Assembly (NCBI GenBank): GCA_052148155.1
Contig: JBKQIY010000144.1
Location: 547-64,546, forward strand
Origin: Acidimicrobiia bacterium
GTDB taxonomy: Bacteria > Actinomycetota > Acidimicrobiia > IMCC26256 > PALSA-610
Length of the DNA stretch: 64,000 nt
Direction: 5' to 3'
Shown here: piece after piece, positions 9,805 to 29,941 of the stretch
How positions within the stretch are numbered: the stretch's first letter is position 1
Layout of the letters: the number at the start of each line of letters is the position of its first letter
The notes under the pieces: model-generated
Told to the model about the DNA's origin: nothing
Database searches by the model: none
Seen by the model: only the letters and a program-made list of their open reading frames with translations
Translations under genes and position numbers: made by a program

Positions 9805-10161
9805 ATGGCAGAGATCCACATTTTCGCGCGGGCCCGAGACAAGATGGCGGTCCAGGCGGGCGAGGTCGTCTTCAGCCAAGGCGACGCCGGCGACGCGATG
9901 TACGCCGTACTCGACGGAGCCGTTGACATTTCGTTGGGCGGTGTCGCGGTGGAGACGGTCGGCCCGAGCGGAATATTTGGGGAACTTGCACTCGTGGACG
10001 CGAGCCCTCGCAGCGCGACCGCGATCGCGCGTGTCGAGTCGCAGCTCGCTCGGGTGGATCGAAGAGAGTTCATGTTCTTGGTGCAGGAGCATCCGACTTT
10101 CGCACTTCAAGTGATGCAGGTGCTCGCGGAACGTATTCGGCACGCGAACGAATCCCACTAG
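9805..10161 (+). CDS. stand-alone cyclic nucleotide-binding (CNB) domain protein
   Basis: ORF 9769..10161; ATG 9805 preferred (MAEIHIF...). Phosphate-binding cassette FGELALVDASPRSATAIA. At about 118 aa there is no room for an output domain. Confidence 0.8.
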   Translation: MAEIHIFARARDKMAVQAGEVVFSQGDAGDAMYAVLDGAVDISLGGVAVETVGPSGIFGELALVDASPRSATAIARVESQLARVDRREFMFLVQEHPTFALQVMQVLAERIRHANESH

Positions 10162-10443
10162 CTCTCCGGGCCGTGTTGCCGGTCCGGCGTTTTCGGCGTC
10201 GTACGGGTCGGTTGTTGGCTCGGCGAGGAGATCGCGGGTCTTGAGCCGTCGTGGGCCAAGCCGGCACTGTCGGGCGCCCAAGACGGAACGTTGAACACAG
10301 CAAGGCAACGCCCATGTGCGTGACTGCACCGGCATGCTCGCGCGGCCGGTCGTCGCGGTTGGTCTCCCGGCTCGCCGTAGCAGCGCTGACGTAAGATCGG
10401 ATGGTTGCTGGCTGACCGGACACCCAACTCGAAGGAGGCTTGG

Positions 10444-12285
10444 TTGTCGTCGGTCGTCGACGCGGAGCGTCGCGGTGAGCTTTTGCTCGCCTTCGACCTC
10501 GTGGAACGCGCGCTGGTCGAATTCCCGGGCGATGTCGAACTCCAATTCCGGGCCGTCCTCGCACTCGCGCGGTCCGGCTCGACGGGAGAGGCGGCTCGCA
10601 GGTTCGACGAGTATGAGCTCGGGATCGTCAAAGATGAAGACACGCAGGCGCTGTCGGCGCGACTGAAAAAGGATGCTGCCCTCGTCGCCGATGGTGACGA
10701 AGGACAGCGACTCGCTCTGCAAGCTGCCCTCGAGTATCGGATGATCTATGAGCAGACCGGCGGCTATTTCCCTGCGGTGAATGCGGCGACGTTAAGTTTC
10801 CTTGCCGGCGATCGCGACGGGGGAGTTGCGTTGGCTGGCGATGCGCTCCGAGCCGTCGTCGCTTCGCACGACGATTCTTACTACGCGTTGGCGACTGAAG
10901 CCGAAGCGCACCTGCTTCGGGGCGAGGTCGAAAGCGCACGGAGTGCGCTCGAGCGTGCGGCCCGTGCGAACAAGGGTGACTACGGCGCGCTCGCGACGAC
11001 GCGCCGCCAGTTACGCATGATCTGCCAGACCGCCGGAATCGATACGGAGGTCCTTGCGGCTGTGGCTGGACCAGCAGTCGTTCATTTCTGCGGTCACCGG
11101 ATCGATGTCGATGACCGTGGACCGTTCCGGTCGACGGACGAACGCCATGTTGGTGGCCTGATCGTGGACGTGGTCGCGAGACACAACGTCGGGTTCGCCT
11201 ATGGGTCGCTGGCGAGTGGCGGAGACATCTTGTGGGCCGAGGCGCTTCTCGCCCGCGGCGTCGAACTCCATATCGTCTTGCCGTTTGCGCTCGAAGAGTT
11301 CGTCGAGTGCTCGGTCGCCCCTTCCGGACACTCGTGGGTCGAACGGTTTTCGCAATGCCTCGATCGGGCTGCGTCGGTGACCTACGGCACCAGTGACGCC
11401 TTCCTCGGCGATGACGTCCTGTACCGATACTGCTCCGAAATTGCGATGGGACTCACCCTGGTGCGTGCACGCTGGCTCGACGCCGAGGTGCACCAATTCG
11501 CGTTGTGGGACGGTAAGCCGGCCCGCGGCGAGGCCGGTACCGCAATCGACGTCGCTCTGTGGCAGAGCACCGGTCATCCGGTCACGATCGTCCGACCTCC
11601 CACTGTCGACGGCCCGCCGATCATCACGGACTCGGGCCAGCGGTCAGTACCGGGCCCGACCGTCGCGCGTCACGACCGGGCCGTGGAGGCAGGTTCGGGG
11701 CGCGTCATCCGGGCGATGTTGTTCGCCGACGTACGCGGGTTCTCGAAACTCACTGACGAGCAACTTCCGACGTTTGCACAATATGTGTTCGGGTCTTTCG
11801 CCGAGGTGCTCGACCGATACCGCACCGTTGTGGAGTACAGCAACACGTGGGGGGATGCGCTCTACGCGGTCATCACCGATGCTGTGTCGGCGGCCGCGTG
11901 TGCGCTCGACCTCCAACACGCCATCGAGCATTTGGCTCCCGAGACGGTTGGGCTCCCGGCCGATCTCGCGCTCCGTCTTGGCGGACACGTCGGTCCGATC
12001 TTCCCTGTCGCCGATCTCATCCTCAAACGGCGATCGTTCGTCGGCTCGCACGTGAACCGCACGGCGCGTATCGAGCCCGTCACACCGCCGGGTGCCGTCT
12101 ACGTCACATCACCGTTCGCGGCTGCGCTCGAACTCACCGACGGACACCCATTCGCCTGCGACTACGTCGGACATCGGCCCGCCGCGAAAGATTACGGGTC
12201 GCTGCGCATGTATCGACTCCGACTGGCGAATACGACTCCGGCCGACTTGTCGGGCGGAGGGCGCGCGGGCACGCCCGTCTCGTAG
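10444..12285 (+). CDS. multidomain class III adenylate/guanylate cyclase (N-terminal helical repeats + SLOG-like Rossmann domain + cyclase)
   Basis: ORF 10405..12285; TTG 10444 preferred because GAAGGAGG lies 5-6 nt upstream. C-terminal cyclase motifs: MLFADVRGFSKL, NTWGDALYAV, GSHVNRTARIE. Middle region: VVHFCGHRI...GFAYGSLASGGDILWAEALLARGVELHIVLPF. Confidence 0.85.
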   Translation: MSSVVDAERRGELLLAFDLVERALVEFPGDVELQFRAVLALARSGSTGEAARRFDEYELGIVKDEDTQALSARLKKDAALVADGDEGQRLALQAALEYRMIYEQTGGYFPAVNAATLSFLAGDRDGGVALAGDALRAVVASHDDSYYALATEAEAHLLRGEVESARSALERAARANKGDYGALATTRRQLRMICQTAGIDTEVLAAVAGPAVVHFCGHRIDVDDRGPFRSTDERHVGGLIVDVVARHNVGFAYGSLASGGDILWAEALLARGVELHIVLPFALEEFVECSVAPSGHSWVERFSQCLDRAASVTYGTSDAFLGDDVLYRYCSEIAMGLTLVRARWLDAEVHQFALWDGKPARGEAGTAIDVALWQSTGHPVTIVRPPTVDGPPIITDSGQRSVPGPTVARHDRAVEAGSGRVIRAMLFADVRGFSKLTDEQLPTFAQYVFGSFAEVLDRYRTVVEYSNTWGDALYAVITDAVSAAACALDLQHAIEHLAPETVGLPADLALRLGGHVGPIFPVADLILKRRSFVGSHVNRTARIEPVTPPGAVYVTSPFAAALELTDGHPFACDYVGHRPAAKDYGSLRMYRLRLANTTPADLSGGGRAGTPVS

Positions 12286-12326
12286 GTCTGCAACCTCGCT
12301 CGGTCCGGTGGACTCGACGGTGAGAT

Positions 12327-15300
12327 CTAGCTTTTCGAGGTGGTCGTCGCGTCGGGAACCGCGGAGGACAATCTCGCCGGAACGTCGGTTGGACGGGCCG
12401 CGATGCCGGCCGAGCCGTACAGAGTCTTACGGTTCGGCCGTCGGCACCGTGGACGGTGAGGCGTCTCGCCCATCGCAGGACAGCCCGACGGGCTCTCGTT
12501 CACCGGCCCCGAAGATGGGAGCTCGGCACGGACCGGCAATGGTTTCGCGGTCCGCACCACAGATGGCCGCGCGATCGGCGGGGACGCGTTGATGTTCCAT
12601 GTGGCGGTGGTCTGAGCCGGCGAACACGCGGGTGCGTAGGTCTCGCCGGGAAAGTATGTCTGCCACTCGTCTGGGGTCAGCGCCCGCGGGGCGGCGGCAC
12701 AGAGCTGGCTGAGCAGCGTGGCGGGTGACGCACCCCACGAGTCGGTGAAGAAACGCGAACCGTGGAAATCGATGGCGACCGCGGCGATTTCACCGTCAGC
12801 GGGCATCCCCACAGATATCTGCCCTTCGACCTGGCCGACAGCCGGCGTGACGTCTCGCGCGATTCCCAGCGGCTGCAAGAATCGGCCCAACTCGTCGCCG
12901 GTCACCACGACATCGGTGCCGTCACCGCGGACGTCGTTGTAGAAGTTCAGGCCTACCGTCGCGACCTCCCCGTTGTCTGAAATCGCCAGCGCGGTCGGAT
13001 CGAACGTGGACGATGAGGTCAGCACGACATCCGATGCCACGTCTTGCGTGTTCGACGTTGACCCGAGATTCCAGATCGCGACGGTCCCGCCGGCATTGAA
13101 GGCGAGAAGCTGGCCGTTCGGGCTGAACCGGAGGGCATAACCGTCGTTTCCGAAGCTGCCGCTGCCGAGGGCAACGACCCCGGCGCTCATGCTCAGCGTG
13201 TGGAGTATCGCTCCGCTGCGCGCATCCAACAGCACGCCGCCGACTTCGCCGGAAGAACCCTGCGTTGCCACAAGCGCGACGACGTCGGTGCCGGGTTGAA
13301 AGGCCGGTACGGACACGGTCTGCTCGCCCAGCCCGACCGACTGGTTGTCGATCACCTGGAGTGGTTGACCGGTCGCGACGGAATAGGTCACCAGCGCGCA
13401 GCTGTGCGGTCCGGACGTCCCGTGCGCGTTGTCGTCGAAGGTCACGGCGACGACGTCGGTGGCGTCACTCAATGACACACCGACGGGGATGTCGTCGGGT
13501 ATGCGAGCCAGGGGGGTCGCGCCCAACTGCGTGCTGTCGACGATGGTGCCGGTCGCCGCGTCGAGGATCAGCACGCGGCACGGGCATCCGCCGGTGTGTC
13601 CGATGATCGCGACCGCGTCTGTCCCGCTGGGATCAAAGCTGACCGCGTTGATCGCTTCGTCGGGTCCGAGGGGCACGGATAGGCGACGTTCGGTGTGAGC
13701 GGCTCCGTCGATCATGGCGAGGGAGTGTGCACTCCAGGCGAGCGCGGTCTGGCCGGTCGGTGCCTCGACGACGGTCGTCCCCGCGGGCACAGCACCGTTG
13801 CTGGGCACGATGGCGGACGAGGTACTGGCCGGTGACTGCAGGTCGATGATCTGCAATGCCGTCAGGCTCGACGCGACCAGGCTGGTTCCGTTCGGACTGA
13901 TCGACAGATTGCAGAAGTACGACGCGCATAACTCGAGCGGTACGACACCCTGCGTCGTCCATTTCGCCGCGGTGAGGTTCCACACCTGGTAGGTCGGGAC
14001 CGACCCGATCGAGTTGAGCAGCACGACCGCGCGGCCGTCCGGGGTCGAGGTCACGAGCGTGTTGAGGTTGCCGCCACCAAGCGCGGCCGGAATAGGCCGC
14101 GTCAGTTCGAACTGTGCACGGGGCGCCGAGGCCCCGGCAACCACTTGCAGTTCGACGTGCCGTTCGTTGTTATACACCCACACGGTCGGGCCGGTGGGCG
14201 CGAACTCCACCGCGGGCGGGTCGGCGGTCTCGTCTGGCGAGATCCGCGGCGGGTTGACCCAGCTGCTCAACTCCGGTGTCGCGAAACTGCCGATCTTGTA
14301 GGCGGCGCCGGCCTTGCCGGTCGCGACGTCGATCGGGACCAACGCGTAGTCGTCGCCTCCGGTGTAGACGAGCGCAGTGGCGAGTGAGCCGTCCTCGTTG
14401 ATCGCGACACCGACCGGCTGGTGGGGGAGTGCGATTCGGCGCGGGGGTGATTGACCGGTTGATATGTCCACCGCCTTCGCGCCGTTCGGGGCGAGCCACG
14501 CGAGCACGTCGCCGTTTCCCGACAGCGCAGGGCGCCGTCCGGTCAGACCGTTGCCGCTGTCCGGTTCTTGAGAGGCGACCGACCATGCCGAGACGGTGCC
14601 GTCGCCGCTCGCGGCGTTCGACGTCAGCGCCAAGACGTTGCCGTCGCCCGAGAGGGCGCTTTCGGAAGTCAGGCCGGTGCTACTCGTCGCGTTCGCCGCC
14701 AGTGAGCCGTCGGCGTTCCACACCTGCACGACGTCGGGCCGGCTCGATTGTGCCGATGAATACGTCGCGAAGCGCTGGCTGTCCGATGACCATGACACGG
14801 GATACGGCTGCGCCGACAGGAGATCTGACGTCGATCCGGCGAGCTGGCCGGTCACGAAGCGGCCGCCGGCATTCGCGAGTGCGTCCAGTGCACTGTTCGC
14901 AACTGAACCGTCGATCTGGATATCAGGCTGTTCGCAGCCGCTGTCTGGATACGAGGCGGTGTTCGAGGTCGAGTTCGGGTTGATCGCGCTGCTCGCACAT
15001 GCGTGGCGTACGGCCTCCGCCGCGAGGAGGACGCCCAGCTGGTAGGTCTGGTCACCCGAGCTCATCAGTTGTTCGCTGCGACGGGCAGCAAGTCTCGCCT
15101 CGGCGAGGAGGGTCGATTGCTGCAGCGCGAGGCTGCCCTTGACCAAGTTCGAGTTCGCGGTGTCGAGATTCGCGTTGGTGATGGAGAGTTCTTGCGCGCG
15201 GCTCTCGGCCAGGGTGCGCTGCTGGGAGGCTTCGATGGCACTGAGCTCGGCTTCATGCTGGCGGGCGAAAGCCAAACCACGCTGCTGGTCTGCCTCCATG

Positions 15301-16091
15301 CGCTGCTGGTCCGCCACAAGGCTGGCCCTGGTCGCCTTTCCGCGCGCGACAATCGCCTTTTCGCTCGCGATGAGTGCGAGCCCCTTTTGGACATCGGCGA
15401 GGTGCTGTTCGGTTCGCGCCCGTGCCGCGCTGCGTCGAGCGGCTCCTGCCGCGTTGACCGCGAAGACGGACGTCGCGATCGATGCCAGGGTGAGAACCAC
15501 GAGCGCGACGCCCGCCGCGACCGCCTGCCGTAACGCTCGCCGATGCTGACGTACGTCTTCGCCAGTGAGTTCGTCCTTGGCCATCCCATGCGCGGGCGCG
15601 GCGAGGTCGGCGATGTGATCTCGGAACCGGCCGTCGGTCAGGTCGAGCTGGACTTCTGCACGTGCCCAGCGCATATCGACATGAAACGGCTCTTCCTGAA
15701 AACAGCCCGCGAACGCCGACCCCAGCGCGGTTGTGGCTTTCCAGTCGAAGTCGTTCGCGCTTTCGTCCCAGCGGATCTCGCCGTCAGTCAACAACACCAA
15801 GAGTCCGTCCGAGCCGTGCTTGGCCCGCCAGTGTTCGACCTCGCGTCCACACCACACCGACGCCGCCGCGTCGGGCGAGGCAAGGAACAGGAAGTACCGT
15901 GAGCTATCGATCGCGTCGGCGATGGAAGACCACAACCCCGGATTGGCCGACAGGGCTGTCCGGTCCCGGAACACGTCCAGTGCCCGGCGCCGGTACCACG
16001 GCTTGGCGAACTTCGACAGTCCGTCTTGCACGCGCTCCGATAACAGATCGTCGCCGCCATGGCTGTACGAAATGAAGACGTCGTAGCTCAT
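12327..16091 (-). CDS. TIR domain protein with one TM helix, coiled coil and large beta-propeller-like region
   Basis: ORF 12327..16106; ATG 16091 preferred (GGGAGG 5 nt upstream). N-terminus SYDVFISYSH...FLFLASPDAAASVWCGREVEHW (TIR). Hydrophobic AVAAGVALVVLTLASIATSVFAV. Q-rich heptad region. Repeated blade-like units (LSGDGNVLAL, LSGNGDVLAW, INEDGSLATA, STPDGRAVVL, ISPNGTSLVA, FSPNGQLLAF, ISDNGEVATV). Near-C-terminal LTPDEWQTYFPGETYAPAC. Confidence 0.85.
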   Translation of the reverse strand: MSYDVFISYSHGGDDLLSERVQDGLSKFAKPWYRRRALDVFRDRTALSANPGLWSSIADAIDSSRYFLFLASPDAAASVWCGREVEHWRAKHGSDGLLVLLTDGEIRWDESANDFDWKATTALGSAFAGCFQEEPFHVDMRWARAEVQLDLTDGRFRDHIADLAAPAHGMAKDELTGEDVRQHRRALRQAVAAGVALVVLTLASIATSVFAVNAAGAARRSAARARTEQHLADVQKGLALIASEKAIVARGKATRASLVADQQRMEADQQRGLAFARQHEAELSAIEASQQRTLAESRAQELSITNANLDTANSNLVKGSLALQQSTLLAEARLAARRSEQLMSSGDQTYQLGVLLAAEAVRHACASSAINPNSTSNTASYPDSGCEQPDIQIDGSVANSALDALANAGGRFVTGQLAGSTSDLLSAQPYPVSWSSDSQRFATYSSAQSSRPDVVQVWNADGSLAANATSSTGLTSESALSGDGNVLALTSNAASGDGTVSAWSVASQEPDSGNGLTGRRPALSGNGDVLAWLAPNGAKAVDISTGQSPPRRIALPHQPVGVAINEDGSLATALVYTGGDDYALVPIDVATGKAGAAYKIGSFATPELSSWVNPPRISPDETADPPAVEFAPTGPTVWVYNNERHVELQVVAGASAPRAQFELTRPIPAALGGGNLNTLVTSTPDGRAVVLLNSIGSVPTYQVWNLTAAKWTTQGVVPLELCASYFCNLSISPNGTSLVASSLTALQIIDLQSPASTSSAIVPSNGAVPAGTTVVEAPTGQTALAWSAHSLAMIDGAAHTERRLSVPLGPDEAINAVSFDPSGTDAVAIIGHTGGCPCRVLILDAATGTIVDSTQLGATPLARIPDDIPVGVSLSDATDVVAVTFDDNAHGTSGPHSCALVTYSVATGQPLQVIDNQSVGLGEQTVSVPAFQPGTDVVALVATQGSSGEVGGVLLDARSGAILHTLSMSAGVVALGSGSFGNDGYALRFSPNGQLLAFNAGGTVAIWNLGSTSNTQDVASDVVLTSSSTFDPTALAISDNGEVATVGLNFYNDVRGDGTDVVVTGDELGRFLQPLGIARDVTPAVGQVEGQISVGMPADGEIAAVAIDFHGSRFFTDSWGASPATLLSQLCAAAPRALTPDEWQTYFPGETYAPACSPAQTTATWNINASPPIARPSVVRTAKPLPVRAELPSSGPVNESPSGCPAMGETPHRPRCRRPNRKTLYGSAGIAARPTDVPARLSSAVPDATTTSKS

Positions 16092-16560: not shown

Positions 16561-17022
16561 ATGTACAACGTGATAGTGGTCGGGACGGACGGCTCGGAGA
16601 CGGCGGGCGTCGCGGTCCATCAGGCGACAGCGCTCGCAGCCCTCACCGGAGCGACACTCCACATCGTCAACGCCTACCGGACGATGTCGATCAGCAGCGT
16701 GGCGGTCGCCGCGACTGCTGGAGGAATGTCGAACATCGACGTCGAGGCACTGAATAAGAGTGTCGGCACCGAAAGCGCACAGGTGTGCGAGCATGCCGCC
16801 AGCGAGGCGCGCCAACTGGGTGTCTCGGTTGAGCTGCATGCGGTCCCCGTCGAGACCGCGGATGCGCTGGTCCGGGTCGCCGAAGATGTCGGCGCCGATC
16901 TGGTCGTTGTGGGCAACCGGGGAATGAGCGGCAAGAAACGCTTCGTGCTTGGCAGCGTCCCGAACAAGGTGTCGCACCACTGCCCGTGCAGCTTGCTCAT
17001 CGTTGACACGACGGCCGAGTGA
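16561..17022 (+). CDS. universal stress protein (UspA family)
   Basis: IVVGTDGSETA...LHIVNAY...DLVVVGNRGMSG...LGSVPNKVSHHCPCSLLIV. Confidence 0.9.
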   Translation: MYNVIVVGTDGSETAGVAVHQATALAALTGATLHIVNAYRTMSISSVAVAATAGGMSNIDVEALNKSVGTESAQVCEHAASEARQLGVSVELHAVPVETADALVRVAEDVGADLVVVGNRGMSGKKRFVLGSVPNKVSHHCPCSLLIVDTTAE

Positions 17023-17383
17023 CGTTCCGCAGGGTCGGTCTCAGTCGCGTCGGCGCGATCGCCCGTCCACCAAGAGGCACTCACACGAGCTGGAGGTAGG
17101 CAAGTCGCGTCGCGGCCCGACGACGATCGACGACGGGGACGGTGACGGTGACGCTCCGAAACGTGTCGAGGTTGGCGCTCGCGGGTTGCGTGCTCGGGTA
17201 CGGTCGGTCGTTCGAGCGCAATGGGATCGCACCGCGGTGGGGTGTGCGCCGTCGTCACGTCTGCGACCAAACGGGCCTCGAAGTCCGTCGCCGAGTGGCT
17301 CGATGACCCGATCCGGTTCGCCGACACGTCGACGAGGTTGACTGCAGCCAAGGTTGTGCGGGAGCGGCGTTGGCGTCCGGGTG

Positions 17384-18067
17384 TCAGCGTTCGCGGTTGT
17401 CGAACCGATATCCCATGCCTGGCTCGGTGATGAAGTACCGCGGTCGGGACGGTTCGGGTTCGAGCTTGTTTCGGATCTGGCTGATGTAGATGCGCAGATA
17501 GTGGGTCTTGTCGTCGTGTTCTGGCCCCCATGCGTGTTGGAGCATCTGCTGTTGCGTCACGAGCCTGCCGGGGTGGCGGACGAGCTGTTCGACGATCTGC
17601 CATTGCCTGGGCGTGAGACGAATCTCGCCGTCATTGCCGCGTATTTGCTTGGCTCGCAGATCGATCGTGAAGTCGTCGGTGACGACGACTGGTGCTGCTT
17701 CTGTGGTTGTTCCTCGCCGCAACACGGCGCGCAGTCGTGCGAGGAATTCATTGACGACGAACGGTTTCGTGACGTAGTCGTCTGCGCCTGCGTCGAGCGC
17801 TGCGACCTTCGCAGACTCGGTATCGACGGCCGACAGCGCCACGATGGGCACGTCAGTCCAGTCTCGCAACGCGGTCGCGACCATGACGCCGGCCATGTCG
17901 GGCAGATAGAGGTCGAGGATGACGGCGTCGGGATGTTCGCGTTCGGCGAGCGTCAGACCTTCGCTGCCTGTGGTCGCGATCACGACCTCGTACTCGTGGG
18001 CCTCGAGGAGGATCCGCAGCGCGCGCCCTAACGCGGTGTCGTCCTCGATGACGAGCAGCTTGGTCAC
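17384..18067 (-). CDS. kdpE: KdpE-like OmpR-family response regulator
   Basis: ORF 17384..18346 trimmed to GTG 18067 (VTKLLVIEDD; the alternative ATG at 18097 adds 10 aa). Receiver motifs DLYLPDMAG and DDYVTKPF. C-terminus THYLRIYISQIRNKLEPEPSRPRYFITEPGMGYRF closely resembles my recollection of E. coli KdpE. Confidence 0.85.
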   Translation of the reverse strand: MTKLLVIEDDTALGRALRILLEAHEYEVVIATTGSEGLTLAEREHPDAVILDLYLPDMAGVMVATALRDWTDVPIVALSAVDTESAKVAALDAGADDYVTKPFVVNEFLARLRAVLRRGTTTEAAPVVVTDDFTIDLRAKQIRGNDGEIRLTPRQWQIVEQLVRHPGRLVTQQQMLQHAWGPEHDDKTHYLRIYISQIRNKLEPEPSRPRYFITEPGMGYRFDNRER

Positions 18068-18200
18068 GGCTCTCGCACATTCGGACCGACCGGGCATCGT
18101 TGCGTTCCGGGCGGGTTCGGCGCATGTCTGGACCGTGCCGGTGGCTGGCGGGTGTGTGTCGCCGTTTCCTCTTGTCGTTGGGACGCCGTGAGGGCCTCCT

Positions 18201-18884
18201 CTAGTCGTGTCTGAGGTTGGACGCTGAATGTTGGAAGAGCCGTTCGATGTCCGCTTCGGTGGCGCTTTCCGTAACGAGGATGACTTCGTCGCCCGGCGCA
18301 AGTTGGAATGATCCGCCGGGGACGTTGGGTTCACCGCCTCGCACAACCGCAGCGATCATCGTGCCGGTGGGCATCGTGATATCGGCGAGCGTGCGTCCCG
18401 CAGCGTCGGAGTGTGCACCGATCGTCGTTTCGATGAGCCGCACGCCGGCACGGGCGAGTTGCAGCAGCCCGATCGTGTCAGCCGAGCCCGTTGCTTCCAT
18501 CACCAGCGACAAGAGGGTCGACGATGCGGAGACAGCGACGTCGATGCCCCAATGTTCATCGAAGAGCCACTGATTTTCAGGATTGTTCACGCGTGCAACG
18601 ATGCGTGGAATGTCGAAATAGCGTTTGGCGAGCAACGAGGTGACGAGATTGTCTTCGTCATCGCCGGTGGTCGCGACCAACACGTCGGCTTTGAGCGCGC
18701 CCGATCCTTCGAGGACGTTGGGGTCGCAGGCGTCACCCCACAAGACCTGGCATTTGAGGTTACCTTTGAGGCGTTCGACGAGTTCGTCGTCGATGTCGAT
18801 GAGGCTTACCTCGTGACGAGCCGCGGTCAGCGCGGTCGCGGTTTCGATACCGAGACGTCCGGCTCCGGTGATGATGACTCTCAT
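18201..18884 (-). CDS. trkA: TrkA-type RCK (K+ transport regulatory, NAD-binding) protein
   Basis: MRVIITGAGRLG Rossmann motif plus a C-terminal TrkA_C-like region. ATG 18884 overlaps the upstream stop (ATGA). Confidence 0.85.
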   Translation of the reverse strand: MRVIITGAGRLGIETATALTAARHEVSLIDIDDELVERLKGNLKCQVLWGDACDPNVLEGSGALKADVLVATTGDDEDNLVTSLLAKRYFDIPRIVARVNNPENQWLFDEHWGIDVAVSASSTLLSLVMEATGSADTIGLLQLARAGVRLIETTIGAHSDAAGRTLADITMPTGTMIAAVVRGGEPNVPGGSFQLAPGDEVILVTESATEADIERLFQHSASNLRHD

Positions 18885-19550: not shown

Positions 19551-22325
19551 CTAGGCGGTCGTCGGTTGGCGTCGTGATCGGATCCACAGTTTGCGCAGTT
19601 CGTCTGCGATCAGCAGGACGACACCGAACGCGATGAGCATGAGCCAGTCGTACACGGTGAGTGGCGCCGTGTGGAACACCGATTGCAGCAGTGGGACATA
19701 GCTGATCGCGGAGATGATCGCGATGCCGAGAAATTCTGCGCCGACCAGCGGGAGGTTGGACAGAAGCCCGACTCGGAACACGCTCTCCTCGTCGGTGCGG
19801 ACCGCGAAGCCGTTGAAGAACTGACTGACGACGATGCCGGCTTGGGTCATGGTCAGCGCTTCGCGGTAGGTGGGGTTGCTCGCGGTGAACTGACTGAACG
19901 GAATGTGTGCGGAATGGATCCGCCAGTAAAAGGCGAAGATCACACCAGCTGACTGGATGATGCCCAGAAACAAGAATCGGCGTACGACCGACCCCGAGAA
20001 CAGCCGTTCGGATGGAGGGCGAGGCGGACGGTCCATGATGCCAGGTTCGGGTGGCTCGGCGCCGAGCGCGAGGGCAGGCATGACGTCCGATCCAAGGTCG
20101 ATCGCGAGGACCTGCAGCGCGGTGAGCGGCACGAGCGGGAATCCGACGAACACACTGATCAGGATCGGGCTGAGTTCGGCAATGTTGTGACTGAACAGGT
20201 AGATGAGGAACTTACGGATGTTCTGGTACACCGAGCGTCCGAGCTCGACCGCCGAGACGATCGACGCGAACGAATCGTCGAGCAGGACCATCACAGCGGC
20301 TTCACGAGCGACGTCAGTGCCGGTGATGCCCATCGCGACACCAATGTCCGCGCGTTTGAGCGCCGGAGCATCGTTGACGCCGTCGCCGGTGACCGCGACG
20401 ATCTCGCCCATGTCTTTCAGGGCGCTCACGACTTGCATCTTGTGTTCGGGCCGTACCCGTGCGAACACGATCTCCCAATGCGCTCTGAGCACGTCCTTGA
20501 GGTCGTCGTCGGACATGGCTTCGAGATCGTTGCCGCTGACGACCTTGGCGTCATCGCCGACAACGATGCCGACCCGTCGAGCGATGGCTTCGGCGGTGAG
20601 GCCGTAGTCGCCGGTGACCATGATCACGCGGATGCCCGCACCGCGACACGCACGCACCGCATCGACCACTTCCGGGCGAGGAGGATCGAGCATCCCGACC
20701 AAGCCCAAAAACGCGAGTTCACGTTCGGCCTCCTCGACCGGCGCGTAGGCCTGGGAGACGGGTCTTGACGCGACACCCAGCACCCGCAACGCATCTCCGG
20801 CGAGCGCGTCGTTCGCGGCGGTGATCTCGTTGCGGAGCTCGTCGGTCAACGCGACGACGGACCCGTTCCAGCGTACGGTCGTACATCGCGCGAGGAGCTC
20901 TTGCGGAGAGCCCTTGACGAAGCTCTCGTAGCAGCCGTCGACATCGTGGATCGTCGACATCAGTTTGCGATCCGAATCGAAAGGGTGCTCACTGACCCGT
21001 GGGGTCTTCTCAGCCGCAGCTTCGATGTCGAAACCCGCCTTCGCGGCAGCGACCACGATCGCGCCTTCGGTTGTGTCCCCAAGGATCCGCCAGCCCTGGT
21101 CTGCCGTCGGTGCCAAGAGTCTCGCGTCCGCGCACAACGCAGCGGTCCGCAACAGGACAGATACGTCTTCATCGACGTCGTCGACAGCTCCTTCGGGCGC
21201 ATAGCCGACACCATGTACGCGGTGCACGATGCCGGACGCCCACGCTGCCTGTACTGTCATTTCGGCCTTGGTCAAGGTGCCGGTCTTGTCGGTACAGATG
21301 ACCGTCGTGGAGCCAAGTGTCTCCACCGCGAGCAGCTTTTTGATCAACGCATTGCGCTTCGCCATGCGACGTACGCCGATCGCCAACGAAACCGACAATG
21401 TGGCTGGGAGTCCCTCCGGAACGAGCGCGACCATGACGCCAAGCGCGAAGACGAACGCGTCCGTCACCTTCGAACCACTGGTTGTGGCACGCAACGCGAA
21501 CAAGACCGCACCAAGACCGATGGCCGCGACCGAAACCCGCTTGGCCATGATCGCGACCTGCCGTTGGAGTGGGCTTTTTTCTTCGTGGACCTCAGAGGTG
21601 AGTTGGAAGATCCGCCCGAACTCGGTTCCCAATCCGGTCGCGAAGATGACGGCCTTGCCGGTTCCGTTTACGACCGACGTCCCCATGAACACTGCGTTGC
21701 GGGCCTCGACGAGCTCCGTGCCGGGAGCCGCCTCGCTGTCGGTGCGTCCCACCGGGTCGCTCTCGCCGGTGAGCGCAATGTTGTTGACTGACAGCTCATG
21801 AGCCTCGACGACGCGAGCGTCCGCGGAGATCGCATCGCCCGCCTCGAGAACCACAACATCGCCAGGAACCAGGTCCCGTGCTGGCACCTCTACGCGCTCG
21901 CCATCGCGAATCACGCGACTCGATCGAGGCACCATCGCCTGCAGGGCCTCAGCCGTCCGTTCCGCGGAATACTCCTGGAAAAATCCGATCACGGCATTGA
22001 GCAATACGACACACAAGATCGCGATCGCCAGCTCCAAGTTGCCGGGATCGTGCGGCGTTTGGATGCCGTACGCCAAGAACGTGATCGCTGACGCAACGAT
22101 CAGCACTACCGCGAAAAGATCGGTGAACTGCGCGAAGAACCGAAAGATGATCGGGCGGTGCTTTGCGCGCGGCAGCTCGTTCGGACCGCACCGCACGAGC
22201 CGCGCTGCGGCCTCGTCGTTCGTGAGTCCACGCGGCGAACTGTCGAGCGCCGCGTACACATCCAGGCGCGACAACTCAATCGGCCCGTCCGCCACTGGCA
22301 ACTCCCGCTCCTGCGCGGTCGTCAA
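19551..22325 (-). CDS. cation-translocating P-type ATPase (P2-type)
   Basis: [10 protein letters not shown] phosphorylation motif, [23 protein letters not shown], and an N-terminal cation-ATPase domain ([19 protein letters not shown]). Start is TTG 22325 per the ORF track and is uncertain. Confidence 0.9.
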
Positions 22326-22711
22326 CCCGGCCTCTTCACGGTCATCGGGACCTCACGTCTAACGCGATTCCAACAAGGTCGTAACGCTCGTGGAACACGA
22401 ACTCACCCGACGAGCACAGCTACGCGATCTTTACGCTGGGTCCGGTGTTCTTTACGGCGTCTTAGCGCGACGGTGTGCGACGGACCGACGTGGCGCAAGA
22501 TCCCACGGTCCGGCCGCGCCGCCGGCGCGTCTGGTCGACCCGCCCACGCGCCGCGTCACCCGGTCAAGGACGCTGCGACGATCCGCGCCGCCGGTCCTGG
22601 CTGTCGGGGTGCACGTCCCGCCGGCCGCGCGGCCGTTCGAACGGTGGGTCATGCGCCGCTGAGGCCCGCTGAGGCCGTTGACGGGTCGTCGTTTCGGCGG
22701 ATGGTGGCGGT

Positions 22712-23713
22712 TCAGTCTGCGGCTTGGGCGAGAACCTTCATATCGCTCGGAAGCTGCGCCTTCTCCCGGAAGTCGCGCAGTCCGTAGCCGGTCAGGGTCG
22801 TCGGTCCGATTGCGCGGGCGGTCGCGCTGCGCCGCAAGCCGAACATGGGTGCGAGTTCGCCGAAGTAGCTGCCGACGTCTATGCGCGCGAGGTCTTCTTC
22901 GCTGCCGTCGTCGCGTGTACGCAGGATCTGGATCTGGCCTGTCTCCACGACGTAGACGAGGTCGCCGCGGTCGCCCTGGGTGAAGATGGCCTCGCCCGCC
23001 GCGAGTTGGATGGTTTCGGGATCGCGGGGTGAGGTGTCGGCACGTGGAGTCAGGTTTACGACACCGTCGGCGAGCGGAATCATCCGCTCGTCGTGTGTGG
23101 CGACGACGACTAACCGGCCGTCGTCGGCGAGCGCCCGCATCAGCTTCAGTACGCCGTCGACCTGGATGTAGTCGAGGTGGGCGGTGGGTTCGTCGGCGAG
23201 GATGACGGGCGGGTCGTGCGCGAGCGCCCGCGCGATGGCCACGCGCTGTTGTTGGCCGCCCGACATTCCCGAAGGTCGATGCTGGAGGCGGTGGCCGAGG
23301 TCCACTCGTTCGAGGAGTTCGGTGGCGCGGGCACGAGCCACGCGAGATCTCACTCCGGCTCCGCGCAGCGGCACCATCACGTTCTCGACTGCGGTCAAGG
23401 ACGGGACGAGGTTGAACGCTTGGAACACGACGCCGACGGTCTTGCGGCGATACTCGGTCAGTGACGCACCGTGGAGGGCGATGACATCAACTCCTGCGAC
23501 GGACACTTCGCCGGAGTGCGGGGTCAAAATCGCGGCGAGCACCGACAAGAGCGTCGTCTTGCCGCATCCCGACGCGCCGAGCAGCAAGACGAGCTCGCCG
23601 GCCGATGCTTCGACTGAAAGTCCGTCGATCGGCCGGATCGGATATCCCCCCGACGAGTACTCGATGACAAGATCGGTCACGCGCAGATCGGCCCGGGCGG
23701 TGGACACGCTCAC
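22712..23713 (-). CDS. ABC transporter ATP-binding protein with C-terminal cyclic nucleotide-binding domain
   Basis: ORF 22712..24043 trimmed to GTG 23713, which overlaps the permease stop (GTGA). Walker A GASGCGKTT, signature MSGGQQQR, Walker B VILADEPT. A C-terminal region of roughly 110 aa follows with GEAIFTQGDRGD...FGELAPMFGLRRSATARA (CNB phosphate-binding cassette). Confidence 0.85.
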   Translation of the reverse strand: MSVSTARADLRVTDLVIEYSSGGYPIRPIDGLSVEASAGELVLLLGASGCGKTTLLSVLAAILTPHSGEVSVAGVDVIALHGASLTEYRRKTVGVVFQAFNLVPSLTAVENVMVPLRGAGVRSRVARARATELLERVDLGHRLQHRPSGMSGGQQQRVAIARALAHDPPVILADEPTAHLDYIQVDGVLKLMRALADDGRLVVVATHDERMIPLADGVVNLTPRADTSPRDPETIQLAAGEAIFTQGDRGDLVYVVETGQIQILRTRDDGSEEDLARIDVGSYFGELAPMFGLRRSATARAIGPTTLTGYGLRDFREKAQLPSDMKVLAQAAD

Positions 23714-24813
23714 CCGCCGAACGCCAGGGCAGGATCGACGGTCACGGCTCGTCGCAACGCAACGAGCGACGACGCCAGACCGACCACAACCGCGACGATC
23801 GGTAGCACGACGTACGACGAGATCGGGACCGAGACCGCCATCGCCATCGCGGGTGTCAGGAGAAACGAGAGAATGTATGCGGCGACCGCGGCGGACAACG
23901 CCAGCACGATCGCTTGGAACGCCAAGCCGGACAGCAGTGTCCGCGTCGCGACGCCGGTCGCTTTGAACACTGCGAAGTCGCGGGATCGCTCGATGGCCTG
24001 CAAGTACAGGATCGAACCGATGATTCCCGCTGCCACGATCCACAGCAGAACGGTGATGAAGCTGATTGTCTGTGTCGCTTGGCTGATCGGTCGTTTGAGG
24101 TCAGCCTTCACCGCCTGGTTCGAGAGCAGCTGGTAGCCCGCGGGTGGCGACACGATCGAGCCTCGCACCGCGACAGTCGTGGCGAGCGGAGCGCCGTTCA
24201 GCGCTCCTTCTTGCAGGCTGGCTAGCGGCACGAATGCGACGGGAACGCCAGCGAAGTACGTCAGCCCTTTGGTGCGACCCACGATCGTGAACTCGCGGCC
24301 GAGCGCACGAACCGTCGAACCGAGCCGCAGGCCGAGCGAGGCATCAGCGATCATGTCGCCCGATGCGCGCAACGACCGACCGCCGGCAAGCTTCGGATTC
24401 ACCATCCCACCCGGCACGATCCCGATCACGTTGAGGTCGCGCACCGACGTCGTCGTGACGCTCGTGCGCATGAGTAGCACCGGCTCGGCGGCCTGTACGC
24501 CGGGGAGCGCGGCGATCTTGTGCGCTTCCGAAGCCGGAAATACCCGCGAACTCGTGAACGGTCCCGACACGCCGGCCGGCACAATCCACGAGTCGACATG
24601 GAAGGCCGCAACCGTGTGTTTGATCTCGTTTCCGAAGCTGGCGCTGACGCCGCTCATCAACAGCGTCAACGCGAAGACCAACCCGGCCGCAAGCACCCCG
24701 ATCAGAAACCGACGGCGCCGCCACTGCAGGTCACGCAAGCTCACGAACAGCAAGAACCTCGAGCTTAACGGCACCGTGGTTCCCCTCGCGGGCCGCGGGC
24801 ACTTCGAATTCAT
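23710..24813 (-). CDS. ABC transporter permease (FtsX/MacB-like)
   Basis: ORF 23710..25002 trimmed to ATG 24813. Order is N-terminal TM (FLIGVLAAGLVFALTLLM), a large loop, then three C-terminal TM segments (FITVLLWIVAAGIIGSILY..., LSGLAFQAIVLALSAAVAAY..., VVLPIVAVVVGLASSLVAL). Confidence 0.75.
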   Translation of the reverse strand: MNSKCPRPARGTTVPLSSRFLLFVSLRDLQWRRRRFLIGVLAAGLVFALTLLMSGVSASFGNEIKHTVAAFHVDSWIVPAGVSGPFTSSRVFPASEAHKIAALPGVQAAEPVLLMRTSVTTTSVRDLNVIGIVPGGMVNPKLAGGRSLRASGDMIADASLGLRLGSTVRALGREFTIVGRTKGLTYFAGVPVAFVPLASLQEGALNGAPLATTVAVRGSIVSPPAGYQLLSNQAVKADLKRPISQATQTISFITVLLWIVAAGIIGSILYLQAIERSRDFAVFKATGVATRTLLSGLAFQAIVLALSAAVAAYILSFLLTPAMAMAVSVPISSYVVLPIVAVVVGLASSLVALRRAVTVDPALAFGG

Positions 24814-25265
24814 CCGCGGACCGCGCGGCGCGCGCCGCCCTGAGATGACGTGACTCTCAGTCTCGGCGTCGGCCAGGATCGAGGGGATCCGTTTCCAGAG
24901 CGAAACGTGTTGCTCCTCGCATGTGGCGGCGCCTGTCGGGTAGCCGAGCCACGGTCGGAAACGATGCCGCGCGTGTTCGTCGCAGTCGCGGGCGTTTGTC
25001 ACATTTCGGGCCCGATGTTCTCGGAGCGTCCAACGTTTCGTTCAGTCCGAAGTGCGCTCGGCTGAACCGGTGAACCGCCGCCAAACGAGGCGTCCGCGGT
25101 CAGGCACACGCGCGTTGACGCTCGTGCCGGTGTTGTGAGCGCGGTCGCGGTAACGGCCTGAAAGTACGGAGACGTCGCACTCCAGGTCCGCTCGACCGTG
25201 GTGGGTCCGCTCGCAACGGTGCTTCTGGCCTCGGGCCCCCGTCTCGGCGTCGGGGAGGAGGATGG

Positions 25266-26105
25266 TCAGCGCAGACCCGGGCCCAGCGCATGCAGGCGAT
25301 GCAAGCCGGCTTCGCCGCGCGTCGAGAGACGAGCCAGCCGCAGGCAGCGCAAACCGCAGATCACGATCCAGCCGAGGTCGACTTGTGCGCCGCAGCCGAA
25401 GCGCGGGGAGTTCTCGGCGCAGTGATGGTTCCGGTGCCATCCTTCGCCGACCGTGAGCCACGCGATCACCGGCATGTTCGTCGCGTACCCGCCGAGTGTC
25501 CGTTCCGACACGCCTGCGTGACCGAAGCCGTTGATCGCACCTCCGGCCAGCAGGTAGTAGGCCGCGTGAAGACCAGACGCGGCAAGACCCGCGACGACAC
25601 CGACGGCGACACCGACCCAACCACCGACAATCCAGTGCCCAACGAACGCCATCGTCGTGCACGCAACTGCCACGCCGATCGCGAGTCCGAACTCACCGTG
25701 GTCGAACAGCAAACTGTCCCATCGATCTGGCGTCAGGTCGCGATACTTGTTGACGAGTTGCGGGTCGCGCGTGCTTTTGGTGTACAGCGGTCCGTTCCGC
25801 CAGAACACCCGCCACGCGCCTCGGCGCCCGCCTCCGAAGTTGCGCGGCGTGTGCGGGTCGTCGGGAGTGTCCTCGGCCAAATGGTGGTATCGATGCACTT
25901 GCGCCCATTGCCGAGGCTTCAACGCTGTGGTGATCCAAATGACGACGCGACTTGCGGCGCGAACCTCGGGCCGCAGTTCGATGCTTCCATGAGCGAGGAA
26001 ACGGTGGAGGTACACGGTCGTCGCAAACATCGCGAGTTGCGTCACCGCGAAGCCGACCAGCACGGTGGTGATGCCCATCACAAGGTAGGGAAGCGCAGCG
26101 CTCAA
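25266..26105 (-). CDS. membrane fatty acid (acyl-CoA/acyl-lipid) desaturase
   Basis: Three His boxes: HRFLAH, HRYHH, WHRNHH. Several hydrophobic segments. Confidence 0.85.
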   Translation of the reverse strand: MSAALPYLVMGITTVLVGFAVTQLAMFATTVYLHRFLAHGSIELRPEVRAASRVVIWITTALKPRQWAQVHRYHHLAEDTPDDPHTPRNFGGGRRGAWRVFWRNGPLYTKSTRDPQLVNKYRDLTPDRWDSLLFDHGEFGLAIGVAVACTTMAFVGHWIVGGWVGVAVGVVAGLAASGLHAAYYLLAGGAINGFGHAGVSERTLGGYATNMPVIAWLTVGEGWHRNHHCAENSPRFGCGAQVDLGWIVICGLRCLRLARLSTRGEAGLHRLHALGPGLR

Positions 26106-26360
26106 CGAAACCTCTCATCTCGGGACGATGGTGCGTGTGTCGACCGTCACGGTGTTCTATGAGTCGAGTTCAAGAATCAGGTAAGACATTCGAGTCGGGA
26201 CGGGACAGACGCTTGCCGTTCTGCACGGACGACAACACTGCCCATGTTCGACAGCGCACCCGAGGGGCAGCCGCGTCGTCGTCGACGCGTCGTTCGGCCC
26301 TCGGCGATAGGTGTCCGGTCATACGTGATCGTGGCTCGCGCGGTGATGCGGAGCCCGGGA

Positions 26361-29905: not shown

Positions 29906-29941
29906 GCCGAAACGCCCGCGTTCCGACCGCGCCGATCAGGC

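Follow-up and report, generated by a model that had tools for sequence, protein, structure and literature searches.

In type VIII Thoeris, a TIR protein (ThsB) is paired with ThsI, which is annotated as "CMP hydrolase and TPR" (preprint 10.64898/2025.12.03.692087). The TPR domain of ThsI is predicted to join it to TIR signalling and is presumed to be a sensor of cADPR, which reportedly triggers both the SLATT effectors of type VII Thoeris and the TPR-containing effectors of type VIII (10.64898/2025.12.03.692087). We infer that the TPR domain of ThsI is the one that Pfam calls TPR-S. In type I Thoeris, the partner of ThsB is ThsA, a SIR2-SLOG protein whose SLOG fold binds the TIR product, and in type VII, a TIR protein is paired with the SLATT effector ThsH. 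Pycsar systems combine a cyclase (PycC) with an effector that is fused to a cyclic-nucleotide-binding (CNB) domain.

We analyzed a stretch of 64,000 nucleotides from an Acidimicrobiia bacterium (the window), in which a TIR-membrane protein and a sensor-cyclase are encoded next to each other. These two proteins recur together in dozens of genomes of soil Actinomycetota, often with CNB proteins. The three genes named in a preliminary description of this DNA are all open reading frames as described, and the second CNB module that it had placed about 7 kb away, on an ABC exporter ATPase, is present as well. The features are:

9805-10161, + strand: CNB-only protein, 118 aa (PF00027, E = 1.5e-19)
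10162-10404, + strand: CNB–cyclase intergenic spacer, poorly conserved in comparison to relatives L081 and L082
10405-12285, + strand: TPR-S / SLOG-like / class III cyclase protein, 626 aa, with a TTG start at 10405
10444-11064, + strand: its N-terminal, all-helical TPR region, including TPR-S (PF20308, TPR_19, TPR_14; helices at residues 1-207 of the model)
11068-11634, + strand: its Rossmann-like middle domain, "SLOG-like" (secondary structure of the model, Foldseek)
11704-12225, + strand: its class III nucleotidyl cyclase catalytic domain (PF00211, Foldseek)
12327-16091, - strand: TIR / transmembrane / beta-propeller-like receptor protein of 1254 aa; its gene and the cyclase gene converge, with 41 bp between them
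12330-15455, - strand: its predicted extracytoplasmic region, in which a stretch that is coiled or of low complexity precedes a degenerate WD40-like propeller region (weak Pfam propeller matches)
15456-15512, - strand: its single transmembrane helix, aa 194-212 (hydropathy peak 2.29)
15522-16091, - strand: its N-terminal TIR domain (TIR_2, E = 9e-8; conserved Glu in the motif SVWCGREVEHW)
22712-24043, - strand: ABC-transporter ATPase carrying a CNB domain at its C terminus; an FtsX permease is encoded next to it (23710-25002)

As the preliminary description had noted, the TIR and cyclase genes are convergent, so they are not co-transcribed in the window.

To see how often the two genes are found together, we collected 80 homologous cyclase loci, each from a different species. 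The cyclase proteins are 53-62% identical across these loci, which include metagenome-assembled genomes of Acidimicrobiia and Thermoleophilia. A TIR gene lies within 10 kb of the cyclase gene in 65 of the 80 loci and is directly adjacent (within 300 bp) in 49. All four orientations are represented among the adjacent pairs: the TIR gene is upstream on the opposite strand in 22 and upstream on the same strand in 15, and where it is downstream, it is on the opposite strand in 7 (the window's arrangement) and on the same strand in 5. In the first 500 bp from the cyclase genes, TIR domains have a density of 37 per 100 kb, which falls to about 0.8 per 100 kb at distances of 5-10 kb. Within 500 bp, we observed 29 TIR domains and about 0.7 were expected (P = 2e-36, Poisson). 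The adjacency is thus far beyond chance. The other 15 loci, including one relative with 72% identity, lack a TIR gene out to 10 kb.

Starting instead from the TIR protein, a cyclase gene adjoins it in 4 of 8 independent contigs. In one of the eight (L087), a SLATT/DUF4231 gene takes the place of the cyclase. Another TIR relative adjoins a PIN/MazE module and an IS1595 element. Outside of Actinomycetota, a mobilizable Caballeronia plasmid has an operon of DUF4231, TIR, and WD40 genes beside a homolog of the cyclase protein, with an IS3 element nearby, and in Novosphingobium a TIR open reading frame lies ~540 bp upstream of such a homolog. In the relatives with 84% identity, the triad of CNB, cyclase, and TIR genes is identical. 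The neighborhood comparison that the preliminary description had proposed as a check therefore shows that the genes for the TIR-TM-propeller protein and the cyclase protein are a conserved pair, mainly in Actinomycetota, with CNB genes enriched beside them.

The TIR domain from the window is 50-55% identical to cyclase-adjacent TIR domains from six other loci (L005, L018, L019, L038, L041, and L051). Its catalytic glutamate (E84) is invariant in alignment A3 and in both TIR subfamilies. Nearly all of the partner TIR proteins have a TIR-TM-WD40 layout with the catalytic glutamate retained and one transmembrane helix at about aa 193-225; all 10 of the partners that we scanned have TIR_2 and WD40 propellers. 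The propeller signal is weak in the window protein, whose C-terminal region has weak PDB matches, all to WD40 proteins, but its relatives have clear double WD40 propellers. The Arg-rich, positive side of the helix is N-terminal in 57 of 62 TIR proteins, while both flanks are Arg-rich in the window protein. By the positive-inside rule, which is the sole basis for this topology, the propellers are predicted to face outwards. The helix, along with the N-terminal positive charge in the partners, agrees with the earlier reading of this protein as a membrane receptor.

The public annotation of the cyclase protein begins at 10444 (613 aa), and conservation of the coding sequence with relatives begins again at the TTG codon at 10405. 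The protein's three-domain structure was modeled with confidence (pLDDT 83.5, pTM 0.84). Its N-terminal TPR-S domain, which the preliminary description had missed, scores 36.8 bits against a cutoff of 27.6. The middle domain is a Rossmann-like alpha/beta domain in the confident model. The preliminary description had called it a SLOG-like receiver, and the resemblance holds at the level of the fold only: the best Foldseek matches in PDB, obtained with a middle-domain model of pLDDT 73, are to DprA, LOG, TM1055, and ShosA, with marginal E-values (2.8e-3 and worse) and a TM-score of ~0.49. By sequence, the domain has no match in PDB and none in Pfam, even at E ≤ 10. It has many invariant polar residues, and its invariant motifs include HFCGH, YGSLAxGxD, ELHxVLPF, and GxAGT.

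The analysis confirmed the class III cyclase fold. PF00211 scores 32.4 bits (cutoff 21.9), and the modeled fold matches Cya2, Rv1900c, and CyaB with target-normalized TM-scores of 0.7-0.8. Both metal-binding aspartates, the arginine, and the transition-state asparagine are present, and the aspartates and the arginine are invariant in 36 homologs. The cyclase looks catalytically competent. Because the transition-state asparagine is serine in most homologs, and because the substrate-binding lysine is replaced by asparagine in the window (motif NTWGD), its activity and specificity are uncertain. Rv1900c also has asparagine at the lysine position. In some homologs of the cyclase protein, a SARP DNA-binding module and a CNB domain are fused ahead of TPR-S.

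The 118-aa protein contains PF00027 and the motif FGELALVDASPRSATAIA, and a domain search found no second domain, as expected from its description as CNB-only. It is a real gene, since it is kept with the same position and length in the 84%-identity relatives L081 and L082. It does not continue into a helix-turn-helix: compared to these relatives, the DNA downstream is poorly conserved, with indels that are not multiples of three. The gap to the cyclase gene, previously put at about 280 bp, is 282 bp to the annotated start or 243 bp to the TTG codon. We found no Rfam match and no sigma-70-like promoter in this spacer. The ABC ATPase with a CNB domain, 6.6 kb away, is also found in L081. It is a candidate peripheral reader of cyclic nucleotides and a putative member of the module. 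Across the homologous loci, the density of CNB domains is 14 per 100 kb in the 500 bp nearest to the cyclase gene, compared with 0-1.5 per 100 kb at 7-10 kb (P = 7e-6). The CNB partners beside the pair include CNB-patatin (in L008 and L061), CNB-oxidoreductase, MFS-CNB, and CNB-ABC proteins, and most commonly CRP-type regulators.

The genes and their domains, the catalytic residues, the signals of membrane topology, the repeated adjacency, and the fused domains are all observed; we infer which messengers are used, in which direction the signal flows, and what the module does for the cell. The first component would be a single-pass membrane protein with a catalytic TIR domain in the cytoplasm and C-terminal beta-propellers outside; the second would be a soluble protein in which TPR-S and a SLOG-like Rossmann domain precede the cyclase. 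An extracytoplasmic cue would cluster the receptor, and the TIR domains would then cleave NAD+ to form a nucleotide derived from ADP-ribose (canonical cADPR is our leading guess). The TPR-S/SLOG-like module would bind this nucleotide and switch on the cyclase; we predict that the N-terminal TPR region is the sensor. The resulting cNMP (probably cAMP, although relaxed specificity is possible) would be read by nearby CNB proteins: in the window, these could be the 118-aa protein and perhaps the ABC ATPase. In short, the pairing suggests that the synthesis of cyclic nucleotides could be turned on by a signal derived from NAD. We give this conserved relay, which likely acts in regulation or a stress response rather than in cell killing, a probability of roughly 50%.

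Alternatively, the pair could be a true anti-phage variant of Thoeris: the TIR protein would sense infection, its product would activate the TPR-S protein, cNMP would amplify the alarm, and CNB-gated effectors such as patatin phospholipases would cause growth arrest or death. A TIR protein with a TPR-containing partner is the type VIII layout, and the pairing of TIR relatives with SLATT/DUF4231 recalls type VII. The CNB-patatin genes, the PIN/MazE module with its IS1595 element, and the mobilizable plasmid with IS3 in Caballeronia would also fit. The preliminary description had suggested a PADLOC search to confirm that this is not a known system. The cyclase protein has no match at all, including to PycC; but the CNB portion of the PycTIR models does match the CNB protein, and there is a marginal match to ThsB (E = 5.8e-4). 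Yet the window and most of the related loci lack a toxic effector. The neighboring genes are housekeeping genes, not a defense island, and we found no defense or phage genes near the locus, which fits the earlier suggestion of ordinary signaling rather than immunity. The predicted sensor faces outwards, while known ThsB proteins sense infection within the cell. The conservation of the cyclase protein across the 80 loci is unusually high for a defense gene, and the prevalence of CRP-type regulators among the CNB partners does not fit either. Also, no cyclase effector is listed in the searchable text and tables of a survey from 2025 that covers 29 putative Thoeris types. We consider an anti-phage role unlikely.

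A physical complex without a small molecule seems rather improbable. The TIR domain would serve as an adaptor and bind to the TPR repeats, in the manner of animal TLR-MyD88 signaling, and receptor clustering would activate the cyclase directly. TPR repeats are generic protein-binding scaffolds, the cyclase must dimerize and so clustering could suffice, and tight adjacency in any orientation would fit a stoichiometric partnership equally well. Against this, both TIR subfamilies have the catalytic glutamate as an invariant residue. The SLATT partners of the same TIR family lack TPRs, which a diffusible signal explains more easily. The TPR here is TPR-S, the presumed cADPR sensor if our equation with ThsI is correct, and the invariant polar residues of the SLOG-like domain suggest a ligand pocket.

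Signals could also flow in reverse or in parallel: the cyclase would answer another input, received by TPR-S or by the SLOG-like domain, and the TIR protein would be an NAD-depleting effector under the control of cNMP or of the CNB protein. TIR domains do act as NADase effectors in Pycsar and in some CBASS systems, where they respond to a nucleotide signal, and the enrichment of CNB proteins beside the pair is consistent with this. We think it very improbable: apart from the TIR domain, the TIR protein has only the helix and the propellers, with no CNB or other nucleotide-sensor domain, and large repeat domains on the outside are typical of sensors rather than effectors. Finally, the window's genes are convergent or 243 bp apart with no evident shared operon, but coincidental adjacency of three independent genes is effectively refuted by its recurrence, in all four orientations, among 49 of the 80 loci from different species, by the Poisson statistics, and by the Proteobacterial examples.

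Among known systems, the preferred relay from TIR product to cyclase resembles type VIII Thoeris in that a TIR gene adjoins a gene for a TPR-carrying protein, which in the window passes Pfam's cutoff for TPR-S. It differs in its output (a class III cyclase after a SLOG-like domain, instead of a CMP-hydrolase toxin), in its membrane-anchored TIR protein with WD40 propellers, in the accompanying CNB readers, and in its housekeeping context and its taxonomy (Actinomycetota, versus mostly Pseudomonadota for type VIII). As in type I, the TIR gene is beside a partner with a SLOG-type Rossmann fold, but the window's middle domain matches no Pfam SLOG family and weakly resembles DprA/LOG, there is no SIR2 domain, and the ThsB match is marginal. 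There is no SLATT gene in the window, unlike type VII; the SLATT/DUF4231 neighbors of TIR-WD40 relatives in L087 and on the Caballeronia plasmid link this family to a layout that reportedly signals with cADPR. The preliminary description had invoked Pycsar-type logic, and a nucleotide cyclase and CNB proteins do share one neighborhood, but the analogy is weak: the window's cyclase carries large sensor domains and does not match PycC, and its CNB protein lacks an effector domain. In its catalytic fold and residues, the cyclase agrees with actinobacterial multidomain class III adenylyl cyclases of cAMP-CRP signaling, such as Rv1900c (a top structural match), and CRP-type regulators adjoin many of the loci; but here TPR-S and a SLOG-like domain make up the regulatory module, and a TIR receptor is encoded as the partner. 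With outward repeats, one transmembrane helix, and a cytoplasmic signaling domain, the TIR protein is functionally analogous to Toll-like receptors (repeat ectodomain-TM-TIR) and PknD-type kinases (kinase-TM-beta-propeller); we do not claim homology of the whole architecture. Unlike Toll-like receptors, its order is reversed, with an N-terminal TIR domain that is probably an enzyme, not an adaptor, and its repeats are WD40 rather than LRR. The locus would thus be Thoeris-like TIR signaling with a cyclase as the output in place of a toxin.

The preliminary description had named three adjacent genes, and their open reading frames (ORFs) were confirmed in the window, where the G+C content is ~66%. 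The TIR gene is convergent with the cyclase gene, as that description had cautioned, and a second cyclic-nucleotide-binding (CNB) module was indeed found on an ABC ATPase. Though distant, this ATPase fits the CNB theme of the module.

Genes of the candidate module and the nearby ABC ATPase
9805-10161, + strand: gene 1, CNB-only protein, 118 aa (PF00027, E = 1.5e-19)
10405-12285, + strand: gene 2, cyclase gene
12327-16091, - strand: gene 3, TIR protein, 1254 aa, 41-bp gap from gene 2
22712-24043, - strand: ABC ATPase with a CNB domain, 6.6 kb off

Is the pairing of the TIR and cyclase genes conserved? We compared 80 cyclase loci that were found by scanning a single genome for each species. Their cyclases are 53-62% identical to the window protein, with one (L013) at 71%. 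The loci are from Acidimicrobiia, Thermoleophilia (Solirubrobacterales and Gaiellales), other metagenome-assembled genomes (MAGs) of Actinomycetota, and one MAG that is labelled as Burkholderiales. The Burkholderiales-labelled locus is L013 (contig CAZLEC010000135.1), which is nearer to the window protein than any Actinomycetota locus in the set. It looks like a binning error and not a genuine proteobacterial copy.

When we clustered all plausible ORFs from these loci, the dominant neighbour was a protein of ~940 aa, which is found in 66 loci. All 10 members of this cluster that were scanned contain TIR_2 and WD40 propellers. Using an HMM that was trained on verified TIR domains, we found a TIR gene within 10 kb of the cyclase gene in 65/80 loci and within 300 bp in 49/80, so the synteny that the preliminary description had proposed to look for is present. 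Within 500 bp of the cyclase gene, TIR domains reach a density of 37 per 100 kb, which falls to ~0.8 at a distance of 5-10 kb; in the nearer zone, 29 were observed and 0.7 were expected (p = 2e-36). The linkage of the TIR and cyclase genes is well supported.

The adjacent TIR genes are arranged in every possible way: on the opposite strand, 22 of the 49 lie upstream and 7 downstream (the layout of the window); on the same strand, 15 lie upstream, some of them only 2-4 bp away, and 5 downstream. That the adjacency lasts while the orientation varies points to selection for proximity, beyond inherited gene order. Among close relatives, two loci at 84% identity (L081 and L082) share the window's layout, with a 118-aa CNB gene, the cyclase gene, and a convergent TIR gene. 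The TIR protein has 1256 aa in L081 and is cut off by the end of the locus in L082. No TIR gene lies near the cyclase gene of one relative with 72% identity.

Some loci have two genes for proteins with TIR, a transmembrane (TM) helix, and WD40 near one cyclase gene: L010 (at 7138 and 15776), L036 (14242 and 17149), and L047 (5693 and 8585). In L036 and L047, the two genes stand in tandem. One cyclase may be fed by several receptors.

The module lies among housekeeping genes and not in a defence island. By domain scan, its neighbours on one side are a methyltransferase, a TetR regulator, an acyl-CoA-synthetase-like enzyme, and RibD_C, and on the other side Usp, an OmpR-type response regulator, TrkA, a P-type ATPase, and an ABC/FtsX pair. 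Generic families recur around the 80 loci (SDR, luciferase-like, MFS, methyltransferase, DUF2252, ECF sigma, and VKOR). These neighbours agree with the earlier caveat that the module could serve signalling rather than immunity. PADLOC, a check which had also been proposed, and NCBIfam gave domain-level matches alone for the window's proteins. Neither an Rfam family nor a sigma-70-like promoter was found in the 9-17 kb region of the window.

Two of these neighbours deserve comment. The Usp gene and the OmpR-type regulator lie directly past the TIR gene (window 16561-18346), and a Usp gene is likewise next in L081 and in L083, a relative at 72% identity. No histidine kinase was seen beside the OmpR-type regulator among the window proteins scanned. 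VKOR (vitamin K epoxide reductase) genes are present in L026 (11946-12431), L085 (4407-4895), and four other loci; ORF clustering places VKOR directly beside the cyclase gene in about five of the 80 loci, and it has this position in L085 too. The adjacency may reflect lineage synteny, or it may have to do with disulfide bonds that form in the exported propeller domain.

Three domains, one more than described before, make up the cyclase protein: TPR-S, a Rossmann-like middle domain, and a class III cyclase. TPR-S (PF20308) scores above its gathering cutoff at the N-terminus (36.8 bits versus 27.6), where Pfam finds ordinary TPR repeats as well, and PF20308 is precomputed for all 120 homologues among the matches listed. 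TPR-S was reportedly defined by Burroughs and Aravind in J Bacteriol in 2020; a literature search found no paper that combines "TPR-S" with "TIR". At the C-terminus, class III cyclase (PF00211) is above its curated cutoff (32.4 bits versus 21.9). A confident AlphaFold model built with 36 homologues (pLDDT 83.5, pTM 0.84) begins with helices (residues 1-207), which are followed by a Rossmann-like alpha/beta domain (209-397); a disordered linker connects this to the cyclase (421-594). In several family members, MAP3K_TRAF_bd (PF13281, the ASK1-type TPR region) also scores over the TPR-S stretch, which hints that TPR-S and this eukaryotic TPR might be related.

The cyclase part resembles Cya2, Rv1900c, and CyaB (Foldseek, target-normalised TM-scores of 0.7-0.8, E = 7e-9). 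Across the family, both metal-binding Asp residues (in LFADVRGFS and NTWGD) and the transition-state Arg (LRLGGH) vary little or not at all. The transition-state Asn (HVNRTAR) is kept in the window protein and is Ser in most homologues. In place of the substrate-specifying Lys, the family has an invariant Asn (in NTWGD); the active cyclase Rv1900c has Asn at this position too.

The middle domain has no match in Pfam at E <= 10, and comparing its sequence profile to the PDB gave only noise (PUF4, E = 1.1). In neither search did a curated SLOG family match its sequence. By structure, the best Foldseek match to the model of this domain (pLDDT 73) is DprA (E = 2.8e-3, probability 1.0, TM 0.49), followed by LOG, TM1055, and ShosA, all of which we take to belong to the SMF/DprA-LOG (SLOG) assemblage. 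The SLOG-like call of the preliminary description holds at most at the level of the fold, and the TPR-S domain, which had been missed, must be added to its putative receiver. Both TPR-S and the SLOG-like fold are observed in the gene that adjoins the TIR gene, and this adjacency is kept. The middle domain contains many invariant polar residues (in HFCGH, YGSLAxGxD, ELHxVLPF, and GxAGT), which would fit a ligand pocket or an active site.

The public annotation begins the cyclase protein at 10444 (613 aa). Coding conservation against the 84%-identity relatives restarts at a TTG at 10405, and an "EAWL" segment that is encoded upstream of 10444 is common to more distant homologues, so the true start is probably 10405 (626 aa). 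A database protein that equals the cyclase protein at 100% identity over 98% of its length is annotated as belonging to an Acidimicrobiia MAG. The family is large and well conserved, with 1736 matches in a word-indexed search; the middle domain alone was found in 2752 cluster representatives. Some full-length homologues have a SARP DNA-binding module and a CNB domain fused ahead of TPR-S. The SARP-type module (Trans_reg_C and BTAD) is N-terminal in the homologues P0174, P0198, P0203, P0269, and P0182, with or without CNB. In such proteins, a single polypeptide would bind DNA, sense cNMP, and also carry TPR-S, the SLOG-like domain, and the cyclase.

The TIR proteins that adjoin cyclase homologues appear to be membrane receptors, and here the preliminary description is upheld. 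Nearly all of them have one strong TM helix at about residues 193-225, right after the TIR domain. In 57 of 62 proteins, Lys and Arg are more abundant on the N-terminal side of the helix than on the C-terminal side (means of 4.6 versus 2.35), so by the positive-inside rule, the TIR domain should be cytoplasmic and the propellers outside.

In the window protein, an N-terminal TIR domain (TIR_2, E = 9e-8) precedes one strongly hydrophobic helix (residues 194-212) and a long C-terminal region with weak propeller signals. By sequence, this region matched only WD40 proteins in the PDB (E = 0.0036 and worse). Because both flanks of its helix are rich in Arg, we assigned its topology from its relatives. 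Its TIR domain is 50-55% identical to those of six other loci (L005, L018, L019, L038, L041, and L051) and falls into a subfamily marked by a short insertion. The equivalent of the catalytic Glu, Glu84, is invariant in both TIR subfamilies (SVWCGREVEHW in the window).

To view the pairing from the other side, we picked eight contigs by TIR similarity alone. A cyclase gene adjoins the TIR gene in four of these (L085, L086, L091, and L092), a SLATT_1/DUF4231 gene takes its place in one (L087), and the other three have neither. On the long contigs from ENA (L085-L092), many of the TIR-WD40 and cyclase genes are broken into two or three ORFs, probably through frameshift errors of long-read assembly and not because they are pseudogenes. 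Such split ORFs explain why a protein search with the TIR query returned mostly short fragments, which are unsuited to describing architectures.

Two further examples come from Proteobacteria. On a Caballeronia plasmid, an operon of DUF4231, TIR, and WD40 genes lies 3.4 kb from a TPR-S-cyclase homologue. At this locus (L095, plasmid pSBC2-4 of Caballeronia sp. SBC2, record positions 20529-33627), the TIR (539 aa) and WD40 (~1190 aa) proteins are encoded by separate genes, and the DUF4231 protein has 577 aa. The cyclase homologue, which overlaps a 463-aa protein without a known family, is followed by one of 112 aa; an IS3 transposase lies in the vicinity. In Novosphingobium, a cyclase homologue has a TIR ORF ~540 bp upstream.

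CNB domains are also concentrated near the cyclase gene, with 14 per 100 kb within 500 bp versus 0-1.5 per 100 kb at 7-10 kb (p = 7e-6). A second peak (9.9 per 100 kb) is at 4-5 kb, beyond the TIR gene. Full CRP-type genes are found in many related loci, and CRP/FNR-type regulators are immediately downstream of the cyclase gene in six (L002, L010, L024, L039, L091, and L092). Four loci with the window type of TIR (L018, L019, L041, and L085) encode CNB-Pyr_redox_2 proteins. Further partners are CNB-patatin, MFS-CNB, tandem-CNB ABC exporters, and a 337-aa protein with an N-terminal domain of no known family and a CNB domain. In L001 (5531-6541, - strand), the N-terminal domain of this protein has ~240 aa and no Pfam family, and the CNB domain is C-terminal. 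Proteins of this type are encoded directly downstream of TIR-WD40 in seven loci (L001, L006, L007, L011, L012, L033, and L059).

The window's CNB-only protein ends at the CNB domain; it has no helix-turn-helix (HTH), and no conserved relic of one lies downstream. We rejected the idea that the gene is a CRP with a decayed HTH: the spacer is poorly conserved and has indels that are not multiples of three relative to the 84%-identity relatives, which keep the 118-aa ORF, and a read-through alignment is only faintly suggestive. Nor is the protein especially similar to the CNB domains of the fused homologues; it matches MFS-CNB and other CNB proteins best. That it split off from such a fusion is a weak idea, with which gene order alone agrees.

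We propose that an extracytoplasmic cue would cluster the TIR-TM-propeller receptor, which would then make an NAD-derived nucleotide. This nucleotide would bind TPR-S and/or the SLOG-like domain and switch on the cyclase, and the resulting cNMP would be read by CNB proteins. The pattern of SLATT and TPR partners makes cADPR the leading guess for the nucleotide. We infer every arrow of this relay. Of the preliminary interpretation, the linkage and the receptor idea persist; its receiver lacked TPR-S, and its Pycsar analogy is weak.

In the boldest form of this proposal, to which we give roughly a 30% chance, Toll-like-receptor logic would operate in ordinary bacterial physiology. A propeller receptor that faces outward would sense an extracellular cue, and its cytoplasmic TIR enzyme would answer with an NAD-derived nucleotide for a dedicated cyclase. 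This two-tier cascade (ADPR-type to cNMP) would have CRP-type transcription factors, transporters, and other CNB proteins as its end points, and TIR signalling in these Actinomycetota would be regulatory instead of causing abortive infection. As far as we know, all characterised bacterial TIR signalling systems have a toxic effector at the end and a role in phage defence. Here, the TIR gene is stably paired with a second-messenger enzyme in a housekeeping setting, with CRP-type and other CNB proteins close by. If it is borne out, this relay would be the first bacterial cascade from an NAD-derived nucleotide messenger to a cyclic nucleotide messenger. It would also include a membrane receptor with TIR as its output domain, and it would use TIR signalling for regulation instead of killing. 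Furthermore, cNMP synthesis would provide an easily assayed output for what TPR-S and the SLOG-like domain bind.

There are three main rivals to the relay. The first is a true anti-phage variant of Thoeris, whose catalytic Glu the window TIR shares. A Thoeris partner would carry a toxic effector domain, whereas the output domain in the window is a class III cyclase, and the genes around it are housekeeping genes and not a defence island. The cyclase protein has no SIR2, TM pore, protease, nuclease, or hydrolase domain and the CNB protein is CNB only, as expected from the earlier remark that a killing effector is absent. The module fails membership in Thoeris on the toxic effector and on the defence context. 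In the second rival, the TIR and TPR proteins would form a purely physical complex. The third is reversed flow, from the cyclase towards the TIR protein.

As to specific types of Thoeris, a preprint of December 2025 (10.64898/2025.12.03.692087) describes two, type VII (TIR and SLATT) and type VIII (TIR and ThsI, "CMP hydrolase and TPR"), that both respond to canonical cADPR, which is why SLATT and TPR partners matter here. No cyclase effector appears in its text or in the searched part of its supplementary tables. From its description, we take the TPR of ThsI to be Pfam's TPR-S. The window protein would then share the TPR part of type VIII but not the CMP-hydrolase part, which is nucleoside deoxyribosyltransferase (NDT)-like: neither Pfam nor NCBIfam places a CMP-hydrolase/NDT family in the cyclase protein, and the 50 Foldseek matches listed for the middle domain include no NDT-type structure.

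The analogy to Pycsar that had been drawn is weak. Pycsar has a PycC-type cyclase, whereas the window cyclase protein matches 0 PADLOC families. Pycsar also has an effector in which CNB is joined to a killing domain (TIR or TM), whereas the 118-aa protein has only the CNB domain, and its PADLOC matches span just the CNB part of PycTIR models. The module probably works like a Thoeris front end that is coupled to a cyclic-nucleotide back end.
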